The position numbers and the translations under genes were made by a program. Under the pieces are notes generated by a model. It was not told the origin of the DNA. It was given only the letters and a program-made list of their open reading frames with translations, and did not search any database. Shown piece after piece: positions 2,816 to 64,000 of a stretch of DNA of 64,000 bases. This DNA is from Alphaproteobacteria bacterium (lineage in GTDB: Bacteria; Pseudomonadota; Alphaproteobacteria; Rs-D84): contig JAFURB010000017.1 of assembly GCA_017472065.1 (NCBI GenBank), positions 5,887 through 69,886 of the forward strand, given 5' to 3'. Within the stretch, counting starts at the first letter, position 1; every line of letters starts with the position of its first letter.

Positions 2816-5177
2816 GATTTTTAACCACATAAAATCATATTACAATCGGCATAAACGGCTATGTAACATTGTTGGAATCATCGTTATTGTTTATATGACA
2901 ATACGCGTATTTTTTACACCACCCTTGCTATCGGGCATAGATTTTTCACACGCATACTATGATCGTAATGGCAACCTGATGCGATTAACATTATCCAGCG
3001 ATGATAAATTTAGACTATTTACCCCGATTGATAAAATCAGTCCAGACCTGATACGCGCCACTGTTTTATACGAAGATAAATACTTTTATACCCACCCAGG
3101 CATCAATCCAATATCATTAATACGGGCCACACGCAATTATGTGTCTGGCAACCCTGACACCCCGGGCGCATCCACAATCACAATGCAGGTTGCCCGACTA
3201 AAATACAATTTAGACACAAAAAATCTAAAAGAAAAACTGGTACAAATTGCCGCGGCAATTTACATTGACATGTTTTATTCCAAGGCTGAAATTATGGAGG
3301 CCTATTTGAATCTTGCCCCATATGGTGGCAATATCGAAGGGGCCGCCGCCGCATCATTAATATACTTTCAACGCCCTGTCCACGACATATCAACAATTGA
3401 ATCCATTACACTGTCAACAATTCCCCAGAATCCGCGCAAACGCGGTCTGAACACCCCGGACGGCATGGCCACAATGGCCAAGATGCGAACAAATCTTGTT
3501 GATCGCTGGGTTGCTAAATACCCAGACGACGAAAAATTAACAACATTAAACACGATGCCACTAAACATATATGGCATCCGTGATTTACCATTTGATGCGC
3601 CACATTTTATAAACCACGAAATTCGCACCCCACAAACAAGCCAATATACAGTAACCACAACATTGGACATAGAATTACAAAAACGCATGGAACGAACGAT
3701 GCGCGCACAAATAGACAACCGCAAGGCATACGGCATACATAATGCCGCCGCAATATTAGTTAACTATAAAACAATGGATGTTCTGGCACACATTGGTTCT
3801 GTTGACTATTTTGATAAATCCATATACGGTCAAAACGATGGTGTTCATGCCCGACGCAGTCCCGGTTCAACATTAAAGCCATTAATATACGCCACCGCGA
3901 TTGATATGGGTCATATACACTCTATGACATTACTAAAAGATTCCCCGATTAATTTTGGTGTATATGCCCCAGAAAATTCAGACAGTGGTTTTTATGGCCC
4001 TGTATTGGCACGTGATGCACTGACCCACTCGCGCAATATACCTGCGATACACCTGGTCCAGAAAATTGGCATAAATAATTTTTACAGAATACTAAACAAA
4101 TCGGGCGTATCTGGGTTAAAGCATCCATCACACTATGGTATATCAATCGCCCTTGGCGGGGCCGAGGTTTCAATGTTCGAACTGGCCGACATTTACGCAA
4201 CGATGGCCAACCTGGGCCACCGATATGAAATTCGCACCCACCTGAATACACCACAAAAAACAATCGACAAAATTCTGTCCCCGGAATCATTTTTCATGAC
4301 ACTGGATATGCTGGCCCGACAAGACGACACAAAAAAACACATCCCATTTACCACCGCCAAGAAAAATAATATCCGCCATTATTGGAAGACCGGCACATCA
4401 TCATCGTTCCGCGATGCATGGACCGCCGGGATATTTGGGGACTATGTATTAATCGTATGGGTTGGTAATTTTGACGGCACCCCAAACAATGCGTTCAGTG
4501 GCGCCCGCACCGCGGTCCCGATATATTTTGCACTGGCCGACACAATTGCCCAATACAATTTAGATATTGGCACCCCGGTAACAAACAACAATTTCATGCG
4601 CGATGATTTGAACATTACAACTGTTGACATGTGTGACAAGGTTGGCGGCATCGCCGGCCCACACTGTCCCAGAACAATTTCTGCATATTTCATCCCAGGT
4701 GTTTCCCCCATTGACACATCCCCAATATATCGTGCGGTTGCAATTGATAACGCCACTGGTCGTCGCGCATGCACAAACAATCCGCGCACCACCCATTACC
4801 AGGTTTACGAATTCTGGGATGCAGAATTTCTGGACATGTTTCGACGCGCCGGCATTACACGCAACACCCCACCACCATTTATGCCGGGATGCGATTTAGA
4901 TAATATCCATGATACAACAAACACCCCATACATCGTATCACCCGCCGCCGACACAAAAACCGTTATCGTATCAGACGATGACTTTGCCCCCATATCATTT
5001 ATGGCTGTGTCGCAAAACCCATCTGTAAAAATTTTCTGGTTTCTAGATGATAAAGTACTGGGAACGACAAAATCAGGCGAAACATTAATCCACAATACCC
5101 CAATCGGCACACATACCGTCCGCATATCAACCGACGACGGCACCGGCACATCATCAGATTTTACAGTAACAAAATAA
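2808..5177 (+). CDS. pbpC: penicillin-binding protein 1C (bifunctional transglycosylase/transpeptidase)
   Basis: GT51 motif RATVLYEDKYFYTHPGINP. Transpeptidase motifs STLK, SRN, KTGT. ATG at 2808 (ATGAATAA overlap with the upstream stop) preferred over the ORF-track start 2709. Confidence 0.85.
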   Translation: MNKIFNHIKSYYNRHKRLCNIVGIIVIVYMTIRVFFTPPLLSGIDFSHAYYDRNGNLMRLTLSSDDKFRLFTPIDKISPDLIRATVLYEDKYFYTHPGINPISLIRATRNYVSGNPDTPGASTITMQVARLKYNLDTKNLKEKLVQIAAAIYIDMFYSKAEIMEAYLNLAPYGGNIEGAAAASLIYFQRPVHDISTIESITLSTIPQNPRKRGLNTPDGMATMAKMRTNLVDRWVAKYPDDEKLTTLNTMPLNIYGIRDLPFDAPHFINHEIRTPQTSQYTVTTTLDIELQKRMERTMRAQIDNRKAYGIHNAAAILVNYKTMDVLAHIGSVDYFDKSIYGQNDGVHARRSPGSTLKPLIYATAIDMGHIHSMTLLKDSPINFGVYAPENSDSGFYGPVLARDALTHSRNIPAIHLVQKIGINNFYRILNKSGVSGLKHPSHYGISIALGGAEVSMFELADIYATMANLGHRYEIRTHLNTPQKTIDKILSPESFFMTLDMLARQDDTKKHIPFTTAKKNNIRHYWKTGTSSSFRDAWTAGIFGDYVLIVWVGNFDGTPNNAFSGARTAVPIYFALADTIAQYNLDIGTPVTNNNFMRDDLNITTVDMCDKVGGIAGPHCPRTISAYFIPGVSPIDTSPIYRAVAIDNATGRRACTNNPRTTHYQVYEFWDAEFLDMFRRAGITRNTPPPFMPGCDLDNIHDTTNTPYIVSPAADTKTVIVSDDDFAPISFMAVSQNPSVKIFWFLDDKVLGTTKSGETLIHNTPIGTHTVRISTDDGTGTSSDFTVTK

Positions 5178-5187
5178 ACAAAACCTA

Positions 5188-5215
5188 TTGACAATCAATA
5201 TTTTTGTACTATATT
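5188..5215 (+). promoter_or_regulatory. sigma70-type promoter TTGACA-N16-TATATT
   Basis: ctaTTGACAatcaatatttttgtacTATATTatc. Confidence 0.5.
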
Positions 5216-5248
5216 ATCATACAATAATAACAAATCCCAGGGGACACC

Positions 5249-5620
5249 ATGAACAAGAAAACACCCAAAATACATGTTGCAGGCACAACTATATACCTGT
5301 TTGATTCTATAATCACCCAGGATATATTACACATAAATCGCCTGAACGCAGCGATTAAGATTGCGATTGAAAACGCAAAATCCGCAAACAATAAAACCTT
5401 AACAATATATGTTGATTGCCCAGACACGGTTATTGACGAACGTTTTCAGCCAACATTGACCGCCATATACAATGCGGCCCAATCTGGCATCAATTTAAGC
5501 ATATGCAACGCATCAAACCAAGAATCAACATATGTACGCGTTTTGGAATCGATTAGCGAACTATCAAAAACACCCGAACCATCAAACAGTCCATTTCGCA
5601 AATATATGAAACAGCATTAA
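5249..5620 (+). CDS. hypothetical protein (123 aa)
   Basis: ORF with an AGGGGA RBS, preceded by a TTGACA-N16-TATATT promoter and followed by a stem-loop terminator. No motif recognised. Confidence 0.6.
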   Translation: MNKKTPKIHVAGTTIYLFDSIITQDILHINRLNAAIKIAIENAKSANNKTLTIYVDCPDTVIDERFQPTLTAIYNAAQSGINLSICNASNQESTYVRVLESISELSKTPEPSNSPFRKYMKQH

Positions 5621-5646: not shown

Positions 5647-7071
5647 TTTTTTATCTGCCTTTGAATTATTCTCTGCTTTTGATTTATCATCGGCCAATGC
5701 ATCTGTGGGACTAACATTTGCACGCGATTGCATTTTTGACATTGCAATAACCATATCCATCGCGCGTTGCAATTGATAATCCAACGCATCTTTTTCTTCA
5801 TCGGTTAATTCTTCTGTTTTTTCATCAGATTCCGCATCGTCATCATCAGTTTTCTTTTTATCTTTTTTCTTTGCCTGATCATTTTTCAAAGAATTCTTAA
5901 ACGATGCTTCGGAATACATGCTTTCCTTTTTTTCCAGAACTTCTACCTTGGAATGTAAAACCTCTACATCGGGGGTAATACCTTCGTTCTGAATAGACCG
6001 TCCCGACGGCGTATAATAACGTGCAATCGTGATATGAATTGCCGTTCCATCCCCCAGTGGTTTTTGTTGCTGAACACTGCCCTTGCCGAACGATTGTGAC
6101 CCCATAACCAATCCGCGCCCATTATCCTGAATTGCGCCGGCAACAATTTCCGACGCCGATGCCGACCCATGGTTGATCAGCACCACAACTGGTTTTCCAT
6201 TTGTTAAATCGCCGGGCTTGGCGAAATTTCTTTCAATATCGGCTTTGTCTTTGCCACGGGTTGAAACAATTTCCCCCCCATCCAAGAACGCATCCGACAC
6301 ATCAATCGCCGCGGTTAAATATCCACCTGGATTATTACGCACATCCAGAACATATCCCGCCACCTTTTTCTTTTCTAATTCTGTGATTGCCTTTTTCAAA
6401 TCGCGTGCAGTTGTCACACCGAAATCAGAAATTCTGATGTATCCAATTTTTGGGGTATCTTTATCATCTGGGTCGGCATCCGCCATTGTTTTTACATCAT
6501 GTTTTACCGATTCCACCTTGATAATTGCGCGTTTCAAGGTCAGATTTTTTTCTTCGCCATCTGATATAATGGTTAACTTTACCTTGGTCCCGGGGCGCCC
6601 CTTCATCTTTTTTACCGCCTGATTTAATGTTAAATCAAACACCTGTTCACCATCAATATGTGTGATATAGTCCCCGGCCTTAATCCCTGCTTTATCTGCC
6701 GGGGTATCGTCAATTGGTGAAATGACACGCACCGCGCCACGATCACTGGTAATTTGAATCCCCAGTCCCCCAAATTCACCATGCGATTTATCATTAAATT
6801 CTTTGAAATCATCCGCCGACAAATACGAAGAGTGCGGATCCAACGCCCCCAACATACCGTTCATGGCGGCTTCTAACATCTTTTTTTCATCGGCTTCTTC
6901 GACAAAGTTATCGCGAGCCACCTCGAAAACCATGGCCAGTTTTTTCAGTTCTTCATAAATCTGTTCATCCGTCAGATGAACAACAGGCTCTTCCTTTTTT
7001 TTGTTTTTCGGTGCCGCATCCACCACCATCGGCATTGCCAGCATTGTCAAAATCATAAGTTTTTTCAACAT
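5644..7071 (-). CDS. ctpA: carboxy-terminal processing peptidase (S41 family, PDZ domain) with K/D/E-rich C-terminal tail
   Basis: PDZ-like ADKAGIKAGDYITHIDG. S41 motifs GSASASEI and GKGSVQ. Signal peptide MLKKLMILTMLAMPMVVDA from ATG 7071 with an AAAGGA RBS; the ORF-track start 7131 is rejected. Confidence 0.85.
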   Translation of the reverse strand: MLKKLMILTMLAMPMVVDAAPKNKKKEEPVVHLTDEQIYEELKKLAMVFEVARDNFVEEADEKKMLEAAMNGMLGALDPHSSYLSADDFKEFNDKSHGEFGGLGIQITSDRGAVRVISPIDDTPADKAGIKAGDYITHIDGEQVFDLTLNQAVKKMKGRPGTKVKLTIISDGEEKNLTLKRAIIKVESVKHDVKTMADADPDDKDTPKIGYIRISDFGVTTARDLKKAITELEKKKVAGYVLDVRNNPGGYLTAAIDVSDAFLDGGEIVSTRGKDKADIERNFAKPGDLTNGKPVVVLINHGSASASEIVAGAIQDNGRGLVMGSQSFGKGSVQQQKPLGDGTAIHITIARYYTPSGRSIQNEGITPDVEVLHSKVEVLEKKESMYSEASFKNSLKNDQAKKKDKKKTDDDDAESDEKTEELTDEEKDALDYQLQRAMDMVIAMSKMQSRANVSPTDALADDKSKAENNSKADKK

Positions 7072-52541: not shown

Positions 52542-53891
52542 ATGACAATGAAAAATAAATTATTTTTAACATCACTGGTTGCGATGACGGTTGCGTGCCC
52601 GTTGTCCAGTGTTCATGCAGAATCATTTCCATCAGATTCATTGATGCAGGAAAACAAGACATATGAATCGGCGGCAACATATTCAAACATGGGTGCATAT
52701 GACGGCGATGTGACCGCTGTGGCGGAATATGCCGACACATTGTACCAAATTGCGGCGGGAACATATCTGCCCGCGGCCAGCGAGGGCATAACCGCATCGT
52801 GTCCTGCCAACAGTTATTGCGCGGGACAAACTGATGTAAAATACAACGAAACAATCGACCAAGGATTAACATCCTGTCCGTCGGGATACCCAAATTCATC
52901 AACGGGCGCCAGTGCACAAACCCAATGTTATACGGCATGCACGGTATCGGCTGCGAACATCGCGCATGCAACGGCGGTGTCTGGCAACGATTATTATGGC
53001 ACGGGTGCGGATACATGTGCGGCGACCGCATGCGAAAACGGATACCACGTATTAAAAGACAACTTCATGATTGTTGACACAACACCATTAATACCCATTG
53101 ATTATGCTAAATCGGGTGACGGATACGCGTATGTAGATAACTATCTCCAGATTCAGAACAAAAATTTACCAGATTCTGGTTTGACCGAACGCTTTACATG
53201 GGCAGTGAATTTTGATTCTGGTACGGTATATGGGCGCGCTACTTATCAGAACTATGATAAAACCGGTGCCGTGGCAGCATTTGCCGATGTGTCAAGTGTT
53301 AGGAATGGCGAAATGGCGGTTGAAGAATACAAATCAAAACTAACGGACATCATTGGCGCGACCAAGGCGACATATATGGCGAACCTGGTAAAAGGGCTGA
53401 TTGATGGCAGCAAAACTGATCAAGACCTAACAGAAGCTCGCTATATTCTGTTTCCCGATGAAATTGATACAAATTACAACTCAGGTAGTTCTATGAATGC
53501 TTATTGCTATTGTCAAATGACCGGGTATAAACCACAAGGTGGCGAATTAAGTTCTATCACAGACACCCCATGGGTATTCAACACAACGTGCACCAATCAC
53601 AATACTTGCACACTAACATGTATAAAATTCTGTGCAGAAACAGTATATGGCTCTTATGGAGAAAACAACGATATTTTTCGTGCTGCTTTATTTGGCGCAA
53701 AGAGTTTTGTTGAAGGAGGCACATGCGAGGCTAATGAAATTAGCATCACATGGACAGACGCCACGCCAGATGACATTGCCGCGAATAACGCCGGCATGTG
53801 TACATACGGCGGTGATATTCGCACACCGGTCAAGGCCGCAACCATCCCAGGTAAGACATTCAAGGGATGGAAGTTCAGCAAAGTGAATTAA
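52542..53891 (+). CDS. secreted cysteine-rich repeat protein (449 aa)
   Basis: Signal peptide (MT)MKNKLFLTSLVAMTVACPLSSVHA. CPANSYCAG, CPSGYPNSSTGASAQTQCY. C-terminal ...GKTFKGWKF repeat-like end. Confidence 0.75.
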   Translation: MTMKNKLFLTSLVAMTVACPLSSVHAESFPSDSLMQENKTYESAATYSNMGAYDGDVTAVAEYADTLYQIAAGTYLPAASEGITASCPANSYCAGQTDVKYNETIDQGLTSCPSGYPNSSTGASAQTQCYTACTVSAANIAHATAVSGNDYYGTGADTCAATACENGYHVLKDNFMIVDTTPLIPIDYAKSGDGYAYVDNYLQIQNKNLPDSGLTERFTWAVNFDSGTVYGRATYQNYDKTGAVAAFADVSSVRNGEMAVEEYKSKLTDIIGATKATYMANLVKGLIDGSKTDQDLTEARYILFPDEIDTNYNSGSSMNAYCYCQMTGYKPQGGELSSITDTPWVFNTTCTNHNTCTLTCIKFCAETVYGSYGENNDIFRAALFGAKSFVEGGTCEANEISITWTDATPDDIAANNAGMCTYGGDIRTPVKAATIPGKTFKGWKFSKVN

Positions 53892-53993: not shown

Positions 53994-54024
53994 TAAAAAA
54001 ATCCCCCGTTTGGGGGATTTTTTT
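53994..54024. terminator. bidirectional intrinsic terminator
   Basis: A7-atccccc-gttt-gggggat-T7. Confidence 0.8.
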
Positions 54025-56566
54025 ACATCTGGATATCTTCGCACTTTTCAACCGGTGCAGATTCTTCACAATTCATCTCGTTCTTGGCACCAATTCCCAA
54101 GAATCCCTTCTTGCTGACTGATGTGCAGTTTTTCGTAACAGTCGATACACAATAATGACAAATACGTGTATCACGGTTAAATATTGACCACATTTCACGT
54201 GTGCCACCCGGCAAATCAATTTTAACCTTGTTTGAACCCAGGCCTGTAAACGAACTGACTGCTTCACTAAACTTTGATGCACCGGCGGTTCCATCCATGG
54301 ATGCAGCCCCACTTGTACTGCCCGAACCGCGACCACCTTGGGCCAACAAACTGTTATCCAGTCCCGCACCAACATCATAACTGATTGCGTATGGTGCCGT
54401 CAGCGGTGTATCCGCCGTCACCGCCCCCAATGTCGCCCCACCTGATACCGGCATCATTTGACACATATACTGGGCAATATCCGCAGATGCATCCTTGGAC
54501 GCATCAGAAATCACCGCATTTAATTTAGCATTATAGTTATCTTGGGCCTGGCGCAGGGCCGATGTTGCAATCTGCATTTTCAATTGATTCAACAAATTCG
54601 GGAAACGACCTGTGGTCTTGGCACCTTTTTTACCTGTAATTTGTGATAAATCACGACCATTGACACAGTATTGAATTTCCGGATCCATTTCAATCATTTC
54701 AATTGTGCGATTGATTGTTCCCGCAATATTGTTCAATTCTTCTTCGATCGCAGAAATAATTCCGTCTGCATTGGCAACATCCTTGTTCTTTTCACGAACC
54801 GTTGCAATATAGTCTGCAACACCAATCTGACCTGGTTTTAACGCATCGCCATCATCCGTCACACTGGTTGATGCCATCCCCATTTTAATCGAACCAAATG
54901 AAATCATACCTGTTACACGATACACATTTCCATCTTTTTGTGAACGAATACTGCCCGTGCCGATGGTATCATCAGATGCAAAACGGTTACAGTCGGTTGT
55001 AGAACCACAAACCTCGGCCATTTTGGCATCAACTAAGTTCTGGCAATTATCCAATGCCGAATTATCAATATTCAAATACAATCCCATCAACATCGAATCC
55101 AAATCATCCATCGAGAATTTTGGATTATTCGCCTTGCACACGACTAAACTATCAATCGGACAAATATCATGGATATAGTTATAATCCATACCGATACAAT
55201 TTTGGAAATTTTCACCACAACGTGTATCCGCGGTAAAACAATCCTTAACTTCCTGGGTACACGCATCGACACGCATTGCCGCCAGTTTATCAACAACATA
55301 TCCCCAAATCAGCGGTTCCATGCGTTCACATCGATCAATTTCCACCTTGCAGAAACTGCGTGCCATATCCGGACGCGACAAACATGCATCCATCGTATCG
55401 ACACCCTTGCCAACGATATCATCTTTACACGCCGTCTGGATACAATCAGAAATATCAGTCAAACAAGACTGACGCATTTTTGATTCAACCGCGCTTTCTG
55501 CGACACGAATTGTCGGCGCCGCTTCGCGCAGAAACGCCGGCCAAACATTATTACGCACCGCCACACATTGGTCCAACACGCGTTCGCAAATTATACGCTT
55601 CGCGTTCAGCATTTCCATCGTTGATGCCGTAATATCATAGACATCAACAGTTGCAACCGTGGTACCCGCTGTACTTTCTGCGGCATTATTCTGCATATTC
55701 TCTGATGCGATTGTGGAAACACAATTTTCCCAGTTTTCACCACACGCATCTTCTGTACGCATACACTTCTTAAATTCGACCATACATTGCCCCAGATCGA
55801 ATTTATTCGCACTTTCAAAACTTTCTTTTAGTGCGGTACGAACATCAGATTCCGCATTTGCCATCGCCAGGTCAGCCTCGGCTGATTTGGTTGCGATAAC
55901 ATTTTCAAATGCTTTACAGTCCGACACAATCTGGCGCGAATACATCTGGCGCAACAATTCCAAATCAGATGAACACGACTGTGGCACCTGTTCTACGCAC
56001 AATTCTTCGGCAGCGCGGAACAACGCATCACCGGACAAATCCGCGATTGAATCAGATTCATCTTCGAAAACTTCATCTTCTTCGTATGATGTTTCAAACA
56101 TCGCCAACAAATCAGCGCGTTTTTTCGCCTTGGTATCTGTTTCTTCTAAATCATCGACACTTACAACATTTCCATTTTCGTCATATTGACGCGTTCCTTT
56201 GAAAATAATATCTGCATCTGCGCCGGCTTTAACCTTTTCAACCTCTACTGTTGCGACACGTTCGGCCTCGGCCAATTTTGATTGAATATCTGCAAACTTT
56301 TTTTCGAATTCGATTGATTTATCACTGCACGCACAACTGCCACCATTTGTGTTATCCGTGATACAAAACTGGTCCATGCACCCATAAAATGCATCATAAC
56401 ATTCCTGGTCATAAAGGCCGGTTGCCGCAACCTTAGTACGGACCGTTGTGCCTTTTTGAATTGCCGATTGTTTTGTTGTCTTTTTTGCAGCCGCCGCCAA
56501 TGCATCACCAGAATACAAAGACAGAACAGCAACCAAGGCCCCACACAGTGTGCTAAATTTTTTCAT
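54023..56566 (-). CDS. giant secreted cysteine-rich protein, paralog B (847 aa)
   Basis: Signal peptide MKKFSTLCGALVAVLSLYSGDALA. Signature CYDAFYGCMDQFCITDNTNGGSCACSD (56327..56401). Ends ...CEESAPVEKCEDIQM. Confidence 0.8.
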   Translation of the reverse strand: MKKFSTLCGALVAVLSLYSGDALAAAAKKTTKQSAIQKGTTVRTKVAATGLYDQECYDAFYGCMDQFCITDNTNGGSCACSDKSIEFEKKFADIQSKLAEAERVATVEVEKVKAGADADIIFKGTRQYDENGNVVSVDDLEETDTKAKKRADLLAMFETSYEEDEVFEDESDSIADLSGDALFRAAEELCVEQVPQSCSSDLELLRQMYSRQIVSDCKAFENVIATKSAEADLAMANAESDVRTALKESFESANKFDLGQCMVEFKKCMRTEDACGENWENCVSTIASENMQNNAAESTAGTTVATVDVYDITASTMEMLNAKRIICERVLDQCVAVRNNVWPAFLREAAPTIRVAESAVESKMRQSCLTDISDCIQTACKDDIVGKGVDTMDACLSRPDMARSFCKVEIDRCERMEPLIWGYVVDKLAAMRVDACTQEVKDCFTADTRCGENFQNCIGMDYNYIHDICPIDSLVVCKANNPKFSMDDLDSMLMGLYLNIDNSALDNCQNLVDAKMAEVCGSTTDCNRFASDDTIGTGSIRSQKDGNVYRVTGMISFGSIKMGMASTSVTDDGDALKPGQIGVADYIATVREKNKDVANADGIISAIEEELNNIAGTINRTIEMIEMDPEIQYCVNGRDLSQITGKKGAKTTGRFPNLLNQLKMQIATSALRQAQDNYNAKLNAVISDASKDASADIAQYMCQMMPVSGGATLGAVTADTPLTAPYAISYDVGAGLDNSLLAQGGRGSGSTSGAASMDGTAGASKFSEAVSSFTGLGSNKVKIDLPGGTREMWSIFNRDTRICHYCVSTVTKNCTSVSKKGFLGIGAKNEMNCEESAPVEKCEDIQM

Positions 56567-56591
56567 GCTTCTCTCCCCTTATATGCCAAGA

Positions 56592-58730
56592 TTACATATT
56601 AACATCTTCGCATGATTCAATTTCCTGGCAAAACTCTTGTTCGCCACCCGACAGCGCGCCACCAACACCGGCACCAACCGCACCAACAATACCACCAATC
56701 GCAGTTCCCCACCCGGCATTAATCATTGTTCCCGCCGCCGCGCCACCAGACAAACCGCCCGCCGCCGCTTTCAGTGCAGATGTCGCCTTGGATTCTCCAC
56801 CTGTTTCACAAACCTGTTGCATACGACAAACATGACAGTTACGCAAATCTGGTTCAAACACAACACTGCGGATATAACTGTAATTCTTGTCCGACTTGTC
56901 TGGTGTTTCCACCTTGTATGTGTTATAACAATTTGCTTCTGCTTCTTCTAAATCCTGTTGCCGTGACAATTCTGCAATTTTTGTTTCCAATGCACGCAAC
57001 GCACGATTTTCTGCACCGATACGCGCAATCATTTTGGCCGAATTAAATACAGAATCCCCCAAACTGCGACGACCTGCTGGTTTTTGACTATCCATACACG
57101 CGGCAACTGTGACATCTTTTTCAAACTGCTTAAAGAAATCATCAACGGCTGTTATCGAATTATCACGCACCGTTGCCCGCAAGGCCGCAAATCCAGATTC
57201 ATCTGATGGCAATTCCATTAACGATTCAACCGTCGAATCTGACGGCAAACATGCCATATCTGTTCCACAAACCTTACCCAACTGTTCGCCAAAATAGTTC
57301 ACACATCCCTGCATCAACTGATAGTCCATCTGTAACAACGCCGCCTGAACAATTATGTCAAATTGGCTTTCATTTTTACACGACGGGAACATATTCTGGG
57401 GACACAATGCCACAATCTCAGATGTCTTTTTCCCGACACATTCTGGTGAATTAAAGTTTTCACCACATTTGTCACGCAAACACGCATCAATATCATTTTG
57501 ACAGAATTGTGTACGCAGATAGAACAATTTATCATTTACAACCGTTTTTAATCCTGGAATCAAAGAATCACACTCGTCAATAATCGGACAAATACCAGCC
57601 GCAACATTAACATCTGACAAACACGCAGAATTTGTTTCCGTAGAACAACTGTCTTCCAAACAAACCTGAATTTGGGCCAGACATGTCTGGCGACGATATT
57701 TATCTGCATATTTGGCGGCATCAACCAATATCGCTTCTGATTCCGCTTCCCAATCTTTTAATACATATTCCCGCACCGCCATACACTGTTCCAGAACATT
57801 TTCACATGCATTTGCACGACGTCCCAACAAATCTGCATCTAAACAGTTTTCAAAGTTCGAACCACAACCACCCTTGTCCGCGATACACGACTTATACGCC
57901 AACAAACACTCGCCCTGGTTGTACTTGTTTGTTGTATCCAGCATTTCCAATCTCGCTTTGCGTACTGCGGCCTCGGCCGTGCGCTTATTGGCCTGGGCAT
58001 TAGTTTTTTGTTCATTCAAATACAAACTGTACGCCTTACAGTCGGCCGTAACCTGGCGCTGATACAGCATTTCTTCCATATCCGCCTTTTTGCCACAGGC
58101 TTCTAATTCTGCGCTGCAAAAATCTGCCGCCATAGAATACAAACCATCACCGATATAAACATCAGAATCCAGTTCTTCTTCGTCATAGTCATTATTTAAC
58201 CACTCAGAAAAACTTAACCCCGATACCCGCGAACTTTTTTTGGCCGCCTCGCTTTCACCAAACACCAACTTCGCCTTGGCCCCTAATTGCTCGCGTTCAA
58301 CCCCTTCGGTGTAAAGTTTATCGGCCTCTTCTTGAATTTTTTGAATTTCCTGTATTAAATCTTTGGATTTTTCAATATTAGATGAACACGCGCAACGATA
58401 TCCTTCGGATTCATCCAGCAAACAAAATTCATCCATACATGCACGATACGCTTCGCGACAATTTTCATTAACCTCTGGCGCGGGGGTATCATCTTCGCTA
58501 CCATCGTCACCTGGTTTTTCAACATCAGGCTTTTGTTCTGGCACCGTCACTTCGTTCTTTACAGGGACCGACACAGAAATATTTCCATTTGAATACGCAG
58601 ACAATGTCGGCATACGCGCCGCAACATTTGAACCACGATTAACACCGACACGCGCCGTTTCATCGCGCGATGCAGCCATCGCAATTCCCGGAATTACACA
58701 TAACAATGTTGCTAAAATTCTTATTTTCAT
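56592..58730 (-). CDS. giant secreted cysteine-rich protein, paralog C (712 aa) with C-terminal glycine-zipper segment
   Basis: Signal peptide MKIRILATLLCVIPGIAMA from ATG 58730. Signature CREAYRACMDEFCLLDESEGYRCACSS (58386..58460). GWGTAIGGIVGAVGAGVGGALSGG (56643..56714). Ends ...CQEIESCEDVNM. Confidence 0.8.
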   Translation of the reverse strand: MKIRILATLLCVIPGIAMAASRDETARVGVNRGSNVAARMPTLSAYSNGNISVSVPVKNEVTVPEQKPDVEKPGDDGSEDDTPAPEVNENCREAYRACMDEFCLLDESEGYRCACSSNIEKSKDLIQEIQKIQEEADKLYTEGVEREQLGAKAKLVFGESEAAKKSSRVSGLSFSEWLNNDYDEEELDSDVYIGDGLYSMAADFCSAELEACGKKADMEEMLYQRQVTADCKAYSLYLNEQKTNAQANKRTAEAAVRKARLEMLDTTNKYNQGECLLAYKSCIADKGGCGSNFENCLDADLLGRRANACENVLEQCMAVREYVLKDWEAESEAILVDAAKYADKYRRQTCLAQIQVCLEDSCSTETNSACLSDVNVAAGICPIIDECDSLIPGLKTVVNDKLFYLRTQFCQNDIDACLRDKCGENFNSPECVGKKTSEIVALCPQNMFPSCKNESQFDIIVQAALLQMDYQLMQGCVNYFGEQLGKVCGTDMACLPSDSTVESLMELPSDESGFAALRATVRDNSITAVDDFFKQFEKDVTVAACMDSQKPAGRRSLGDSVFNSAKMIARIGAENRALRALETKIAELSRQQDLEEAEANCYNTYKVETPDKSDKNYSYIRSVVFEPDLRNCHVCRMQQVCETGGESKATSALKAAAGGLSGGAAAGTMINAGWGTAIGGIVGAVGAGVGGALSGGEQEFCQEIESCEDVNM

Positions 58731-58863
58731 GATAATCCACCCTACAATAGTTTTAGTTAATTTTATCAAACATTTAGACTTGGCACAAGAAAAATAAAAA
58801 ATTCTTGCAATTTGTCCCGGGGGGCAATATCATTACCAACGGAAAAAAAACCAAGGATTTTAC

Positions 58864-59112
58864 ATGGCAAAAGATGATGTAATCGTTTTCAGTGGCACCG
58901 TCGAAGATAAATTACCCAACACAATGTTCCGGGTAAAACTTGAAAACGGCCACGAAATTTTGGCAACCGTATGCGGCAAAATGCGTAAGGCACGCATTTG
59001 GGTCAACGTCGGTGAACGTGTACGCGTTGAAATGACCCCATACGATTTGGACAAGGGACGCATTACGTTCGTTGAACGCAATCGCCCAACACCAGACCAA
59101 TCAAATCAATAA
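58864..59112 (+). CDS. infA: translation initiation factor IF-1 (with short C-terminal extension)
   Basis: [42 protein letters not shown]. Confidence 0.95.
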
Positions 59113-59187: not shown

Positions 59188-62067
59188 ATGAAACGGATTT
59201 TGATTTTTATCATGACGTATATCGTCAGTGTCGGTATTGCCGACGCTGCTGTTCGTGATACCAATGCAATATCACGAAAATCAGCATCAACAAACAATTC
59301 TGTTGTATCGCGCACCAATACCACACAACGAACAAACGCCCGCACAACAACATCGCGAGCAACTGTATCTCGTCAACCCGATAAAAACACATCCCGCACA
59401 ACTACATCGCGTTCGCAATCCAACGTACGCACCGGGACCACATCACGCGCCGCGCGTGCAACAACTACATCACGCGCCGCCACCATGACACCGCGCACAT
59501 CAAATACAAAGGTTTCACGTTCTGCCACAAACATATCCCGCCCTGCCCGTGCGGCATCAATTACCGCATCACAATCACAGACATTTGGTACGGGATACAA
59601 CGCGTGTCGCGATGCATACTTTACATGCATGGACCAATTTTGTGCCACACAAAACGAATCGTACCGTCGCTGCACATGTTCATCACGACTGAACCAGATT
59701 AAATCCCGTGAAAACCTGTTATCACAGACGGCTGAACAATTACAAGATTTCAAAGACTTTAACCTTAGTGTGATTGATAAATCCGCCGCCGAGGTCAAGG
59801 CAATGATAAACGCCACATCGGGTGAATACATCGCATCATCATCCAGCGACAGATCTGAATCCGCGAAACAGTTATCCAGTATCGGTTCTATCCTGTCCCA
59901 GGCAAAATCAAAATCATTATCCACCGCCGGCACTGTGGATATTGGTGGTGACATTAAACAGATTTGGCAAACAACCGATCTTGCCAACGGGGCAGATATC
60001 GCGAACCTGACGGGTGAATCATTATACAATGCGGTCCATGCCCAGTGCAGTCAAATGGTGGCGGAAACATGTGAATCTAAATCAACCCTGAACATGGTGG
60101 TTTCTGCGTACGGTATGTATATCGAAAACGATTGCACCACCCTGTCAAACAGTTTGGATTCCAAAACCAATGCAGCCAAGGGTTCTGTGCGTGACACCGA
60201 ACGTGAAATGCACAACGCACGCCTTGACAACTATGATGCCCACAATTCAACATCTATTAATGATTGTGTTGCCCTGGTACGCGCAGACATAACGGCCAAC
60301 ACAGCATGCGGACCTGACTATGTACACTGTCTGGATGTAACCGGTCGATATCTAAATCGTGAAACGGGCGAACCAATTTACACATCTGAATTCTATCAAT
60401 TAAACGGCCAGATTTCATTATCTGGCAACATCCTTACCAACCAGACCAACCGCATGATTGTTGCCGAATTGAACCGCATGCGTAGTTTTGCAAATCTTAG
60501 TCTGGATACATGCCGCGATTTGGCCGACGATGTATGGGACGAATTCGTCCGCCAGGCCATAACTGAAATATACCAGGGCCAACAAGAACGCATCCGTACG
60601 GTCAAAAACGAATGCTTGGATGTTGTAAACGCGTGTTATGATGAAAAGAATCAGTCATTAAAAGACTTTAGCAATGTCAAAGAACAATTATTATTGGGCC
60701 AGCGCCTTGAACTATCCGAAGAACTATGTCGTGAAAAATTAGATGCCTGTTCCAATCTTTACGGTGGCGGTTCTGACGGCCTGCAAGAATTGCTGGTCGC
60801 GATGCACGAACTGACCGATTCCAAGATTGCCAAACAATGTCGCGTAACCCTGCAAGAATACGCGCGCGACATCTGTGCAGTCCCCAGCAACGACACCCTG
60901 CACGCATATCCATATTCATGCCGCGTATATGCCCCTGGCGAACAAAAGTATGCCCAAATCTACGCATGTAACCAACAGTTATGGTCAACCGAAACCGGAA
61001 ATTATTCATCCAGTTACATCCCACCCACAAATGACGGTAACGGTGGTTCTGGGTCAACACCGGGCATACCAACTGTATCTAATTATTCATGTCCAGCACT
61101 GCTTAGATACACCAGTTGTGCCGAAGGATATTACATGACACTGAACGGTGTATACAACAATGGCGAACCACAAATCGGCAATCAATGTACACCGTGTCCC
61201 GATGGATATACATGCGCCGGCGGCACCGCAGACAAGAAATCAATCGAACCAGACACACCCGAAAATCCGGACTCTGACACACCTGCCACAGACCTGGACA
61301 AATACGGACACGACTGCGGCGACTATGCGGGCAGTTTGTACCAACGCCTTGTTCGCTATGCAATCCAAACATGTATTCGCCCATCTGATGCGAACAGTTC
61401 GGATTACTCTTTATCCATTGATGTTTTACAAGATGTAAATGCCGTTATGGATTCAATCCGTGTTGACATGGGCAAATCATTGGCATACGAATGTGAACGT
61501 CTGGGTGGCACATGGGTTGACGCAATGTGGATTGATAACATCGACAAAGGTGAATGCAATGATCAAGTATGCATCCCAGATATAAAAGGTGCAGATAATA
61601 TCCACGACAAGACAGGCGACACACTGTACAAAAAATTCTATGATGAAACAGGCGCAAATACAAAATGGGGATATTGCAAACCAGACAATGGCACCAGCAA
61701 TGGCACTGGTTCCAACGGCGGCGATTCTGGCGGCAACAGTGGTGGCAGTTCTTTGGCCTGTACAGAAGGCGAAACATATACAATTACACTGGACAACACA
61801 ACAAACAGCGATTGTTGCCCAGAATCAGGCATATCAACCACCTCCCAAGAAGTTAGCGTTGTATGTGGCGAATTTCCAAAACTGTCGGTGATACGCGCAA
61901 CATGCACAACAAACCCCAATTGCGTATTAAGTTATTATTCAGATAACAAAACCGACCCATCTGACCCGGCCGCCATATACTTTAGCAGTAACGGAGAATC
62001 TCCTTCAATATACGGAAATGCCGCACTTAAAACAATCTATTCATATTGGGGTGAAATAGAAGATTAA
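59188..62067 (+). CDS. giant secreted cysteine-rich protein, paralog D (959 aa)
   Basis: Signal peptide MKRILIFIMTYIVSVGIADA. TTTSR-type repeats. Signature CRDAYFTCMDQFCATQNESYRRCTCSS (59605..59679). Collinear with paralog A. Confidence 0.8.
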   Translation: MKRILIFIMTYIVSVGIADAAVRDTNAISRKSASTNNSVVSRTNTTQRTNARTTTSRATVSRQPDKNTSRTTTSRSQSNVRTGTTSRAARATTTSRAATMTPRTSNTKVSRSATNISRPARAASITASQSQTFGTGYNACRDAYFTCMDQFCATQNESYRRCTCSSRLNQIKSRENLLSQTAEQLQDFKDFNLSVIDKSAAEVKAMINATSGEYIASSSSDRSESAKQLSSIGSILSQAKSKSLSTAGTVDIGGDIKQIWQTTDLANGADIANLTGESLYNAVHAQCSQMVAETCESKSTLNMVVSAYGMYIENDCTTLSNSLDSKTNAAKGSVRDTEREMHNARLDNYDAHNSTSINDCVALVRADITANTACGPDYVHCLDVTGRYLNRETGEPIYTSEFYQLNGQISLSGNILTNQTNRMIVAELNRMRSFANLSLDTCRDLADDVWDEFVRQAITEIYQGQQERIRTVKNECLDVVNACYDEKNQSLKDFSNVKEQLLLGQRLELSEELCREKLDACSNLYGGGSDGLQELLVAMHELTDSKIAKQCRVTLQEYARDICAVPSNDTLHAYPYSCRVYAPGEQKYAQIYACNQQLWSTETGNYSSSYIPPTNDGNGGSGSTPGIPTVSNYSCPALLRYTSCAEGYYMTLNGVYNNGEPQIGNQCTPCPDGYTCAGGTADKKSIEPDTPENPDSDTPATDLDKYGHDCGDYAGSLYQRLVRYAIQTCIRPSDANSSDYSLSIDVLQDVNAVMDSIRVDMGKSLAYECERLGGTWVDAMWIDNIDKGECNDQVCIPDIKGADNIHDKTGDTLYKKFYDETGANTKWGYCKPDNGTSNGTGSNGGDSGGNSGGSSLACTEGETYTITLDNTTNSDCCPESGISTTSQEVSVVCGEFPKLSVIRATCTTNPNCVLSYYSDNKTDPSDPAAIYFSSNGESPSIYGNAALKTIYSYWGEIED

Positions 62068-62903: not shown

Positions 62904-64000
62904 TTAGAAATCATATCTGAACTTTAACAAACCTGTTTGCGATGTATAATCTTGGTGCAAATCCAGTTCATAGTTCAATGATACTTCTAATCCACGATAT
63001 TCCGCAGTCAGCCCGATTCCAAATTCACCCCCCAGGCGGCTCAGACGATCGACATCCACATAATATGCCGACGCACCCGGCACAACAACCGTTGCCGTCG
63101 CATCATCGGACAAGAAATCATATGTCATCGCGGCACGCATTGTTGGACTGAATTTAACCGCAGAATCCGATTCGATTGTAAATGCATATTTCAAGCCTGC
63201 AACCCCGGACAAGAAATCTGCATCCATACCTGCGATTTCACGGTTCATGACATCAACATGATCTTCCTGGGAAACATGCAGATAGCGCATCCCAAATTCT
63301 GGTGTAACACCATTTGCAAAATCATAACCGAACATTGCCTGGGCGCCATATGATTTAGTTTCATATTCATCGTTCAACAGATATCCAAATACCATTGACG
63401 CATCGGCATAGTCTGATTTTGTATAATTCAATGTTGCGTTTACATACCATGCGGCTGGCTTATACTGAGCATACATGAATATAGAATTATTTTCTACATC
63501 CATATTGCGCCCATCGGCATGGATATCAGAATTACTGAACGCATAACCACCACCGATTGTTAACACATTGTCAATCAATGTATCGCCACCGATTGCAAAC
63601 CCACGCGTATAACCATGGAATTTGTCTGCGAATTTAGACTTGTTAAACATACCCTGGGTCCAAACACCGGCACCGGTTACATCGCCACCGGCACGTCCCG
63701 TCGCACCGCCACCAATTGCAGACATACGGCCGGCCGCCATTGTGACAACCTGGTTCTGGACAGATGCCGCCACCGATTGAGATACCGGTTTTGTATCTGG
63801 GTTTGCCTTGGCCATTTCTTTTTCAACCAATGCAATATCGCCATTGTTTAACGCGGCTTGGGCGCGCAAAGAAACCTGTTGAATTGTTGCATCTGTTGAT
63901 GCGGCCAGACCTGACACAGCACCTGCGGCGGCAATCGATGCACCGGTATCCGCGGCAATCGACTGGGCATCACGTGTGGTCAATGTAGCCTTTGTATTAT
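62904..64000 (-). CDS. autotransporter beta-domain protein (5' part outside window)
   Basis: Frame remains open to the right window edge. Beta-barrel region GVWTQGMFNKSKF...GFAIGGD... ends LLKFRYDF. Confidence 0.75.
   Translation of the reverse strand, partial: NTKATLTTRDAQSIAADTGASIAAAGAVSGLAASTDATIQQVSLRAQAALNNGDIALVEKEMAKANPDTKPVSQSVAASVQNQVVTMAAGRMSAIGGGATGRAGGDVTGAGVWTQGMFNKSKFADKFHGYTRGFAIGGDTLIDNVLTIGGGYAFSNSDIHADGRNMDVENNSIFMYAQYKPAAWYVNATLNYTKSDYADASMVFGYLLNDEYETKSYGAQAMFGYDFANGVTPEFGMRYLHVSQEDHVDVMNREIAGMDADFLSGVAGLKYAFTIESDSAVKFSPTMRAAMTYDFLSDDATATVVVPGASAYYVDVDRLSRLGGEFGIGLTAEYRGLEVSLNYELDLHQDYTSQTGLLKFRYDF

Follow-up and report, generated by a model that had tools for sequence, protein, structure and literature searches.

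The window analysed here, a 64,000-nucleotide stretch of the genome of an uncultured alphaproteobacterium of the order Rs-D84 (assembly GCA_017472065.1, contig JAFURB010000017.1, positions 5,887 to 69,886 of the forward strand), carries two adjacent genes, designated C and B, whose products are exported, cysteine-rich paralogs that finish with nearly the same residues, CED[IV]xM. This shared ending is probably the strand that closes a beta module at the C-terminus and is stapled by disulfides, and the loop ahead of the closing strand would be a membrane hairpin in C and not in B. Any anchoring role belongs to this loop insert and not to the last six residues. An earlier reading of the same DNA without database searches (the sequence-only reading) had drawn attention to the ending and had suggested that it may be a new sorting or anchoring signal.

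B was found to end in ...NCEESAPVEKCEDIQM and C in ...EQEFCQEIESCEDVNM, both of which fit the pattern [IV]-E-x-C-E-D-[IV]-x-M. Comparison with BLASTP gave 26% identity over 485 residues (E 1e-49), bearing out the earlier view that the two proteins are paralogs with almost one ending; at this identity the paralogs are old. B and C each possess 37 cysteines, one of which is in the signal peptide; the mature chain of both is left with 36, an even number that speaks in favour of disulfide pairing. A third gene, D (59188-62067), was identified as a more distant paralog of B and C that does not carry the ending. The ending is also missing from the product of gene A (52542-53891, plus strand), for which no relation to D was detectable by BLASTP; its absence from A and D, already claimed, was confirmed from their sequences.

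The survey of CEDxxM endings that had been proposed as a check was run, and it showed that the ending is kept in orthologs and has two carriers per genome, C and B. All 120 orthologs of C (73-100% identity) end in [DE][FY]CQ[EQ]IE[SF]CED[IV]NM, while 118 of the 120 orthologs of B (70-100% identity) end in CEDI-x-M, usually preceded by C-x2-S-x-P-[VI]-E-K, with a conservative change at E in the other two; the motif was thus not found to be absent from the orthologs of either protein. The end is conserved to much the same degree as the core of the protein among the orthologs of C and among those of B, and so does not stand out as an extreme, but it is clearly more conserved than the 100-200 residues before it.

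No open reading frame (ORF) of this genome other than B and C has the ending CEDxxM. At the DNA level, a degenerate pattern for CED[IV]xM followed by a stop codon had matches in 106 of the 121 genomes of the family, nearly always exactly two per genome, approximately 2.5 kilobases (kb) apart and on the same strand, compared with a single match across the 121 genomes for a reversed control pattern. As only C and B carry it in each genome, the ending is not a tag of many cargo proteins, and a general cargo tag was ruled out. Of 201 genomes sampled across the order, 164 were found to have one copy of the last 75 residues of B, with a match that in every case ran to the final residue of the protein, and all of these 164 genomes (nine genera) belong to the family of the source genome.

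The resemblance between the two ends could be trivial, being a leftover of a recent duplication or the product of a constraint on the DNA, such as translational coupling or a terminator. The genes are indeed adjacent, with the end of C 25 nucleotides before the start of B and the stop codon of B just before a terminator. Set against this, B and C are only 26% identical and the pair occurs in at least nine genera of the family, and the motif codons were found to differ at synonymous sites (TGT/TGC, GAA/GAG, GAT/GAC and ATA/ATT/ATC/GTT/GTG/GTA) while the peptide stays fixed, which indicates that selection acts on the peptide. A constraint on the last codons at the DNA level was ruled out by this variation. 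Restriction of the ending to two recently duplicated genes was likewise not observed, since the tandem is conserved in the genus and the family and a looser form of the ending is present in distant members. A trivial origin is therefore extremely improbable.

This looser form, [DETQNS][IVLF]x[MF], is the exact end of 45 of the 150 best family representatives, with examples such as CTDIQF, CSDIQM, SQSIKM and TEDIKM, and of only three of 595 unrelated ORFs of at least 200 amino acids in this genome. It ends many distant members, and the ending is thus of old standing in a large branch of the family. In approximately 15 more of these 150 representatives the loose motif is followed by 1-39 further residues, as in ...TETIQM-AKTK and ...CEDIQM-GSGAV..., so that a free C-terminus is not required across the family.

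AlphaFold2 modelling of C from a 117-sequence alignment gave a mean predicted local distance difference test (pLDDT) score of 80, with an all-helical body mostly above 90, followed by three long final strands (residues 617-626, 631-644 and 698-711). The last of these strands is the motif itself, with a pLDDT of 84-92, and it was modelled beside the second, which carries the sequence CHxC, with both pairs of cysteines in register. Alignment of family members at the motif showed the module to have the layout C1-x2-C2-x5-8-C3, loop, C4-x4-10-C5-x-[DE]-[IV]-x-[MF], where C1 to C5 are Cys632, Cys635, Cys641, Cys701 and Cys707 of C, the first three being situated on strand 2. The residue numbers of Cys635 and Cys707 and those of Cys641 and Cys701 both add up to 1342, which is the register expected of antiparallel neighbours. 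One face of the last strand is formed by F700, I704, V710 and M712, and the opposite face by C701, E703, E705, C707 and D709. For B, the module of which ends in VEKCEDIQM (54026-54052), a model based on 22 sequences had a pLDDT of 56 with four low-confidence strands between residues 787 and 846, and lends weak support.

Covariation of the module cysteines was examined among 51 parsable, diverse representatives taken from 50%-identity clusters, with counts that carry no phylogenetic correction. C2 and C5 were both present in 26 and both absent from 23 of these, with two discordant cases (Fisher 3e-12), at least one of which (P0282) was a parsing error. C3 and C4 were both present in 46 and both absent from four, with a single discordant case (Fisher 2e-5). 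No significant association was found for the cross pairs among the same representatives. Cysteine losses were spread over several subfamilies, both C-like and B-like. The cysteine of CED (C5) was found to covary with a cysteine that lies 35-72 residues upstream of it.

The reading that we favour is that the shared ending would form the final strand of a small beta-sheet module with which both B and C close at the C-terminus. The module would consist in order of strand 1, strand 2 with C1 to C3, a variable loop, and a terminal strand C4-x5-8-C5-E-D-[IV]-x-M. Nested disulfides, C2-C5 on the outside and C3-C4 on the inside, would link the terminal strand with strand 2 and hold the loop together at its base, so that the cysteine of CED would act as a structural staple, while the alternating F, I, V and M side chains of the tail would make up one face of the strand. 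The loop would be the variable, functional part of the module, being short and polar in B, a zipper hairpin of approximately 53 residues in C, and a loop with two clearly hydrophobic helices in more distant relatives. As C3-C4 would pin both ends of the loop, the insert would have to enter and exit a membrane on one side, that of the disulfide-rich body, and would serve as a re-entrant or hairpin membrane anchor, with this body kept in the periplasm or envelope. The pair would then be co-transcribed, exported envelope proteins, helical and rich in disulfides, of which C is tethered to the membrane and B is not. Paralogy, conservation, distribution, the covariation of cysteines, the predicted strands and the classes of loop length are observed; the formation of the disulfides, the entry of the C zipper into a membrane, the membrane concerned and the role of the pair are inferred. 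The anatomy of the module offers handles that can be tested, namely the nested pair of disulfides, the strand at the very end and the loop, which varies in size from a short turn up to a membrane hairpin of two helices; these point to residues to mutate, to the member expected to be membrane-bound and to the segment likely to be exposed.

The glycine-rich run of C, GWGTAIGGIVGAVGAGVGGALSGG (residues 673-696, 56643-56714), was found to lie in the C3-C4 loop, between the two covarying cysteines. It shows the repeated small-x3-small (GxxxG) pattern over a hydrophobic stretch of approximately 20-25 residues, and the orthologs of C and the C-like representatives retain its core, [PG]-x-W-G-[TA]-x-I-G-G. 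Family members could be grouped by the length of this loop. Loops of 7-20 amino acids, in B-like proteins and others, have no hydrophobic stretch (15-residue Kyte-Doolittle maximum not applicable or below 0.1). Loops of 54-59 amino acids, in C-like proteins, consist of a Gly/Ala helix, a turn [PA]-G-W-G and a glycine zipper (maximum 1.6-2.0). Loops of 139-188 amino acids, in other relatives, possess two strongly hydrophobic segments (maximum 2.3-3.1) joined at a P-V-V-G-W turn that matches the [AP]-G-W-G turn of C. In other subfamilies, a comparable stretch with two hydrophobic segments lies immediately ahead of the module. In B, the place of the zipper is taken by the 18-residue loop TSVSKKGFLGIGAKNEMN between Cys814 and Cys833, and the last 120 residues of B contain no hydrophobic segment (19-residue Kyte-Doolittle maximum 0.3). 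The G/S/T-rich stretch of B that had been placed in the same position as the zipper proved instead to be a low-confidence linker before strand 1. The suggestion that the glycine-rich run of C is a membrane segment is plausible, as the run shares the loop that holds two strongly hydrophobic helices in relatives; set against it are a pLDDT of approximately 35 and the lack of a match to a glycine-zipper hidden Markov model (HMM).

A number of observations weigh against the disulfide-stapled module with its hairpin. The strand pairing and the disulfide contacts are read from predicted secondary structure, register and covariation only, and the covariation counts are uncorrected for phylogeny. No partner cysteine was identified for C1. 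In some relatives with membrane-like inserts, such as P0305, C4 and C5 are the sole module cysteines close to the end, and the tail may be kept in them without the full CHxC partner strand. The exact stop at Met in the orthologs of B and C is compatible with an extra role for the free terminus. Within the insert, AlphaFold2 gave a pLDDT of approximately 35 across the glycine zipper, the 19-residue hydrophobicity of which (1.5) is under that of a typical membrane helix. Scans of the isolated tails (91 amino acids for C) gave no Pfam match of any kind up to E = 10, and the NCBIfam model YiaD_Gzip_OmpA reached only E 0.49 on C (10.1 bits against a cut-off of 175). Lastly, DsbB and VKOR were absent from all 13 genomes checked.

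Further information on the loop came from a congener genome, G038, in which 373-nucleotide inverted repeats, 99% complementary, were found to flank two alternative 3’ cassettes of B (arms at 4938-5310 and 6019-6391 of locus L096, G038:C2:52000-61000). The active cassette encodes a loop of the WFHNNRN type and the silent cassette one of the GFLGIG type, as in the B of the window, and both keep the five cysteines and end in CEDIVM. The same two loop types are the two variants found among the orthologs of B. This arrangement has the appearance of a switch that exchanges the C-terminal module by inversion. Taken together with the two ortholog variants, the cassettes suggest that the loop region is switched and is probably exposed, with the closing strand fixed. 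No such inverted repeats were found in the window.

C-terminal sorting signals known to date are tripartite, consisting of a motif, a helix and a basic tail, and are found on many cargo proteins that are served by a dedicated sorting enzyme. Were the ending of B and C a new signal of this kind, it would be read by an envelope machine for sorting, secretion or anchoring of the two proteins, and of relatives with the looser motif, to the outer membrane or surface. The two carriers per genome, however, belong to one family with no unrelated cargo, and the order of elements is the reverse of the tripartite layout, as the motif comes after the hydrophobic segment and the acidic tail lacks a basic cluster. 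That the orthologs of B and C all stop exactly after Met speaks for a signal, as does the enrichment of the loose end (45 of 150 representatives against three of 595 unrelated ORFs); yet approximately 15 of some 60 motif-bearing representatives extend beyond the motif, the motif cysteine covaries with an upstream cysteine, and the model builds the tail into a sheet at a pLDDT of approximately 90. The two alternative B cassettes of the congener, which differ in the loop and both retain CEDIVM, would also suit a signal, and the one secretin gene of the lineage means that a route across the outer membrane may exist. Co-occurrence of the ending with a sorting gene, which had been suggested as a check, was not observed: PF04203 (Sortase) and PF09721 (Exosortase_EpsH) were matched in none of 13 genomes, with positive controls and with no search made for rhombosortase, and none of the genes of the conserved neighbourhood (autotransporter, D’, D, infA, C, B) is a candidate for a processing enzyme. 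Given the two carriers per genome, the covarying cysteines, the modelled strand and the lack of sortase and exosortase, the proposal of a new sorting or anchoring signal is left unsupported and is distinctly unlikely to be correct. If the ending did prove to be a tag for targeting or assembly it would be a new one, while the present evidence points mainly to a structural feature.

The terminal strand might also serve as an edge strand that docks by beta-augmentation, either between B and C or onto an outer-membrane barrel or a PDZ-domain partner. B and C are probably co-transcribed and are conserved together in at least 69 of 80 species loci, they have a common nine-residue end despite 26% overall identity, and this end follows the pattern hydrophobic-x-hydrophobic-COOH ([IV]-x-M); the exchange of the module as an invertible cassette in the congener suggests an exposed interaction surface. 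Countering this, covariation and the monomer model account for the conserved residues without a partner, and the extensions beyond the motif in family members argue against the need for a free carboxylate, so that docking is given a modest chance of being right. A more speculative form of the same idea, to which a small chance is given, is that the CED-I-x-M module is a membrane-proximal assembly element, the edge strand of which docks B on hairpin-anchored C, or both proteins on an outer-membrane partner. If true, this would imply an envelope or contact structure, stabilised by disulfides, that is peculiar to the Rs-D84 bacteria with their reduced genomes and dependence on partners. The loop next to the invariant strand would be an exposed, diversifying face that is switched by DNA inversion in some species, and the ending would be a C-terminal tag of a new kind for assembly or targeting.

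Returning to the proposed disulfide-stapled module, the proteins that it would close were found to be part of a larger family. B, C and D share the signature C-x6-C-M-D-x-F-C...C-x-C-S and possess an N-terminal signal peptide and a helical body with conserved cysteine columns, 18 of which are invariant in the 117-sequence alignment. A local profile search identified approximately nine family paralogs in this genome, and a search of 1.84 billion proteins with a profile of the B and C orthologs yielded 919 clusters (50% identity). Within the order, 9-17 matching stretches per genome were found in the same taxonomic family and 0-5 in other families; nothing was found with the family profile in approximately 250 other alphaproteobacterial genera. 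Scans of B, C, D, A and D’ with Pfam and NCBIfam gave nothing above cut-off, a sequence profile search of the PDB gave only a chance coiled-coil match (E 0.014), and Foldseek comparison of the confident C model with the PDB gave nothing at E ≤0.001. The CMDxFC family of cysteine-rich exported proteins is undescribed and specific to the order Rs-D84.

The source assembly is 834 kb in size and approximately 80% complete. Candidatus Enterousia (Rs-D84) has been described as an uncultured gut genus with genomes of less than 1 megabase that lack the tricarboxylic acid cycle and a respiratory chain (PMC12306168); cysteine, secretion and surface proteins go unmentioned in that study. The literature found on Enterousia consisted of genome surveys only. 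The Rs-D84 bacteria are widespread in the gut, yet several percent of the coding capacity of each genome is given over to approximately ten large paralogs with approximately 36 cysteines each, and the C-B pair is retained in almost every species.

With regard to the formation of disulfides, a gene for a DsbA-like protein of thioredoxin fold (frames of approximately 280-300 amino acids) was identified in 11 of 13 relatives, which counts in favour of the stapled module; none was found in this approximately 80%-complete assembly. These findings raise the question of how disulfides are formed in an anaerobe that has a DsbA-like protein and no DsbB or VKOR, and how the oxidase is recycled without a respiratory chain. 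Three to five genes with a transpeptidase domain were found per genome, and a Chlamydia-like envelope without peptidoglycan was ruled out on these grounds as the reason for the family. A single gene with a secretin domain (frame of approximately 550 amino acids) was also observed in this genome, outside the window (G000:C16:134274-134774), and such a gene is present in 12 of the 13 genomes checked.

Comparison with known systems showed partial likenesses. LPXTG/sortase, PEP-CTERM/exosortase, GlyGly-CTERM/rhombosortase and MYXO-CTERM proteins resemble B and C in having a short conserved extreme C-terminus on Sec-exported proteins, and in C the motif adjoins a hydrophobic segment as it does in tripartite signals. 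In contrast to these signals, the order of elements in C is reversed and its tail EQEFCQEIESCEDVNM carries acidic and not basic residues; a hydrophobic segment is missing from B altogether, and there are two carriers per genome with no sortase or exosortase gene. The glycine-zipper lipoproteins SlyB/Pcp and the Rickettsia 17-kDa antigen (PF05433, PF13488, PF13441) share with C a Gly/Ala helix, a turn and a G-x3-G zipper of approximately 45-53 residues, in an exported envelope protein with both ends of the hairpin, a proposed one in C, on the same side of the membrane. C differs from them in having no HMM match and no lipobox, and in that its proposed hairpin is no free-standing domain but an insert in a loop that disulfides would close, within the beta module that terminates a helical protein of 700 amino acids.

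Giardia variant-specific surface proteins consist of a membrane helix and an invariant CRGKA tail, the remainder being variable, and cysteine-rich proteins have been proposed as a substitute for peptidoglycan in Chlamydia. Chlamydial OmcB/OmcA and the Giardia proteins are comparable to the family of B and C in being lineage-specific, expanded families of exported and very cysteine-rich proteins. They differ from it in that no HMM or fold match was found and in that the body of B and C is helical instead of being built from beta-helix or CXXC repeats; unlike in Chlamydia, transpeptidase-domain genes are present, so that the B/C family is no peptidoglycan substitute. The C-terminal beta-signal of outer-membrane barrels and the four-strand anchor of trimeric autotransporters (YadA_anchor) are similar in that a helical body is followed at the C-terminus by three to four strands, in which hydrophobic residues alternate as far as the final position. 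The last residue in B and C is Met (Phe in some relatives) and not a near-invariant aromatic, however, one strand face is composed of cysteines and acidic residues, and the strands are proposed to be disulfide-linked. Neither PF03797 nor YadA_anchor matched B or C in a scan that gave E 2.5e-30 for the neighbouring gene at 62904-63998. A beta-signal or YadA-like anchor was ruled out by the acidic and cysteine-bearing strand face, the terminal Met and the absence of an HMM match.

The features of the C-B locus are listed in Table 1. The ORF list used for the sequence-only reading began C at a TTG codon at 58769, 13 codons upstream (58731-58769). Most orthologs of C (703-755 amino acids) start at the ATG at 58730 (MKIRIL...), covering 98% of the listed ORF, and the shorter form is therefore more likely; the stop codon of C is at 56592-56594. 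Hydrophobicity of the N-terminus reached a 19-residue Kyte-Doolittle maximum of 1.96 for C and 1.67 for B, and both signal peptides, judged by eye, appear to be of the typical Sec type, with a putative cleavage site in each, between AMA and A in the case of C. The claim that C and B form one operon was supported by the short spacer with its AAGGGGAG element and by a terminator-like site situated only after B, no such site being found between the two genes.

Table 1. Coordinates of features of the C-B locus (positions are those of the window)
Feature	Position	Strand	Description	Basis
Gene C	56592..58730	minus	712-amino-acid exported cysteine-rich protein	ORF; ortholog starts
Gene B	54023..56566	minus	847-amino-acid exported cysteine-rich paralog of C	
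C-B spacer	56567..56591	minus	25 nucleotides (TCTTGGCATATAAGGGGAGAGAAGC), holds Shine-Dalgarno-like AAGGGGAG	
Intrinsic terminator-like hairpin	54003..54017	minus	TCCCCCAAACGGGGG then T-run, directly after B	
C signal peptide (putative)	58674..58730	minus	MKIRILATLLCVIPGIAMA, next residue A	by eye from sequence
B signal peptide (putative)	56495..56566	minus	MKKFSTLCGALVAVLSLYSGDALA, next residue A	by eye from sequence
C strands 1 and 2 (predicted)	56799..56882	minus	residues 617-626 and 631-644 (NCHVCRMQQVCETG)	AlphaFold2, block pLDDT mostly 74-94
C loop insert	56640..56798	minus	residues 645-697: Gly/Ala-rich helix, turn NAGW, zipper GWGTAIGGIVGAVGAGVGGALSGG	
C terminal strand, the motif (predicted)	56595..56639	minus	residues 698-712, QEFCQEIESCEDVNM; holds C4 and C5	AlphaFold2
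B C-terminal module	54026..54208	minus	residues 787-847; C1 803, C2 806, C3 814, short loop KKGFLGIGAK, C4 833, C5 842	

Around these genes, the C-then-B tandem was found in at least 69 of 80 Candidatus Enterousia species loci, and most of them share the gene order autotransporter, D’, D, infA, C, B. Gene A, which encodes an exported, cysteine-containing protein with no Pfam or NCBIfam family match and is convergent with B, was not found near B in related Enterousia loci and is probably not a member of the B/C/D family. The essential gene infA (58864-59112) sits between the divergent C-B and D-D’ units. An autotransporter beta-domain gene (62904-63998, minus strand; PF03797, E 2.5e-30), which runs past the end of the window, adjoins the cysteine-rich block and is syntenic with it in many species.

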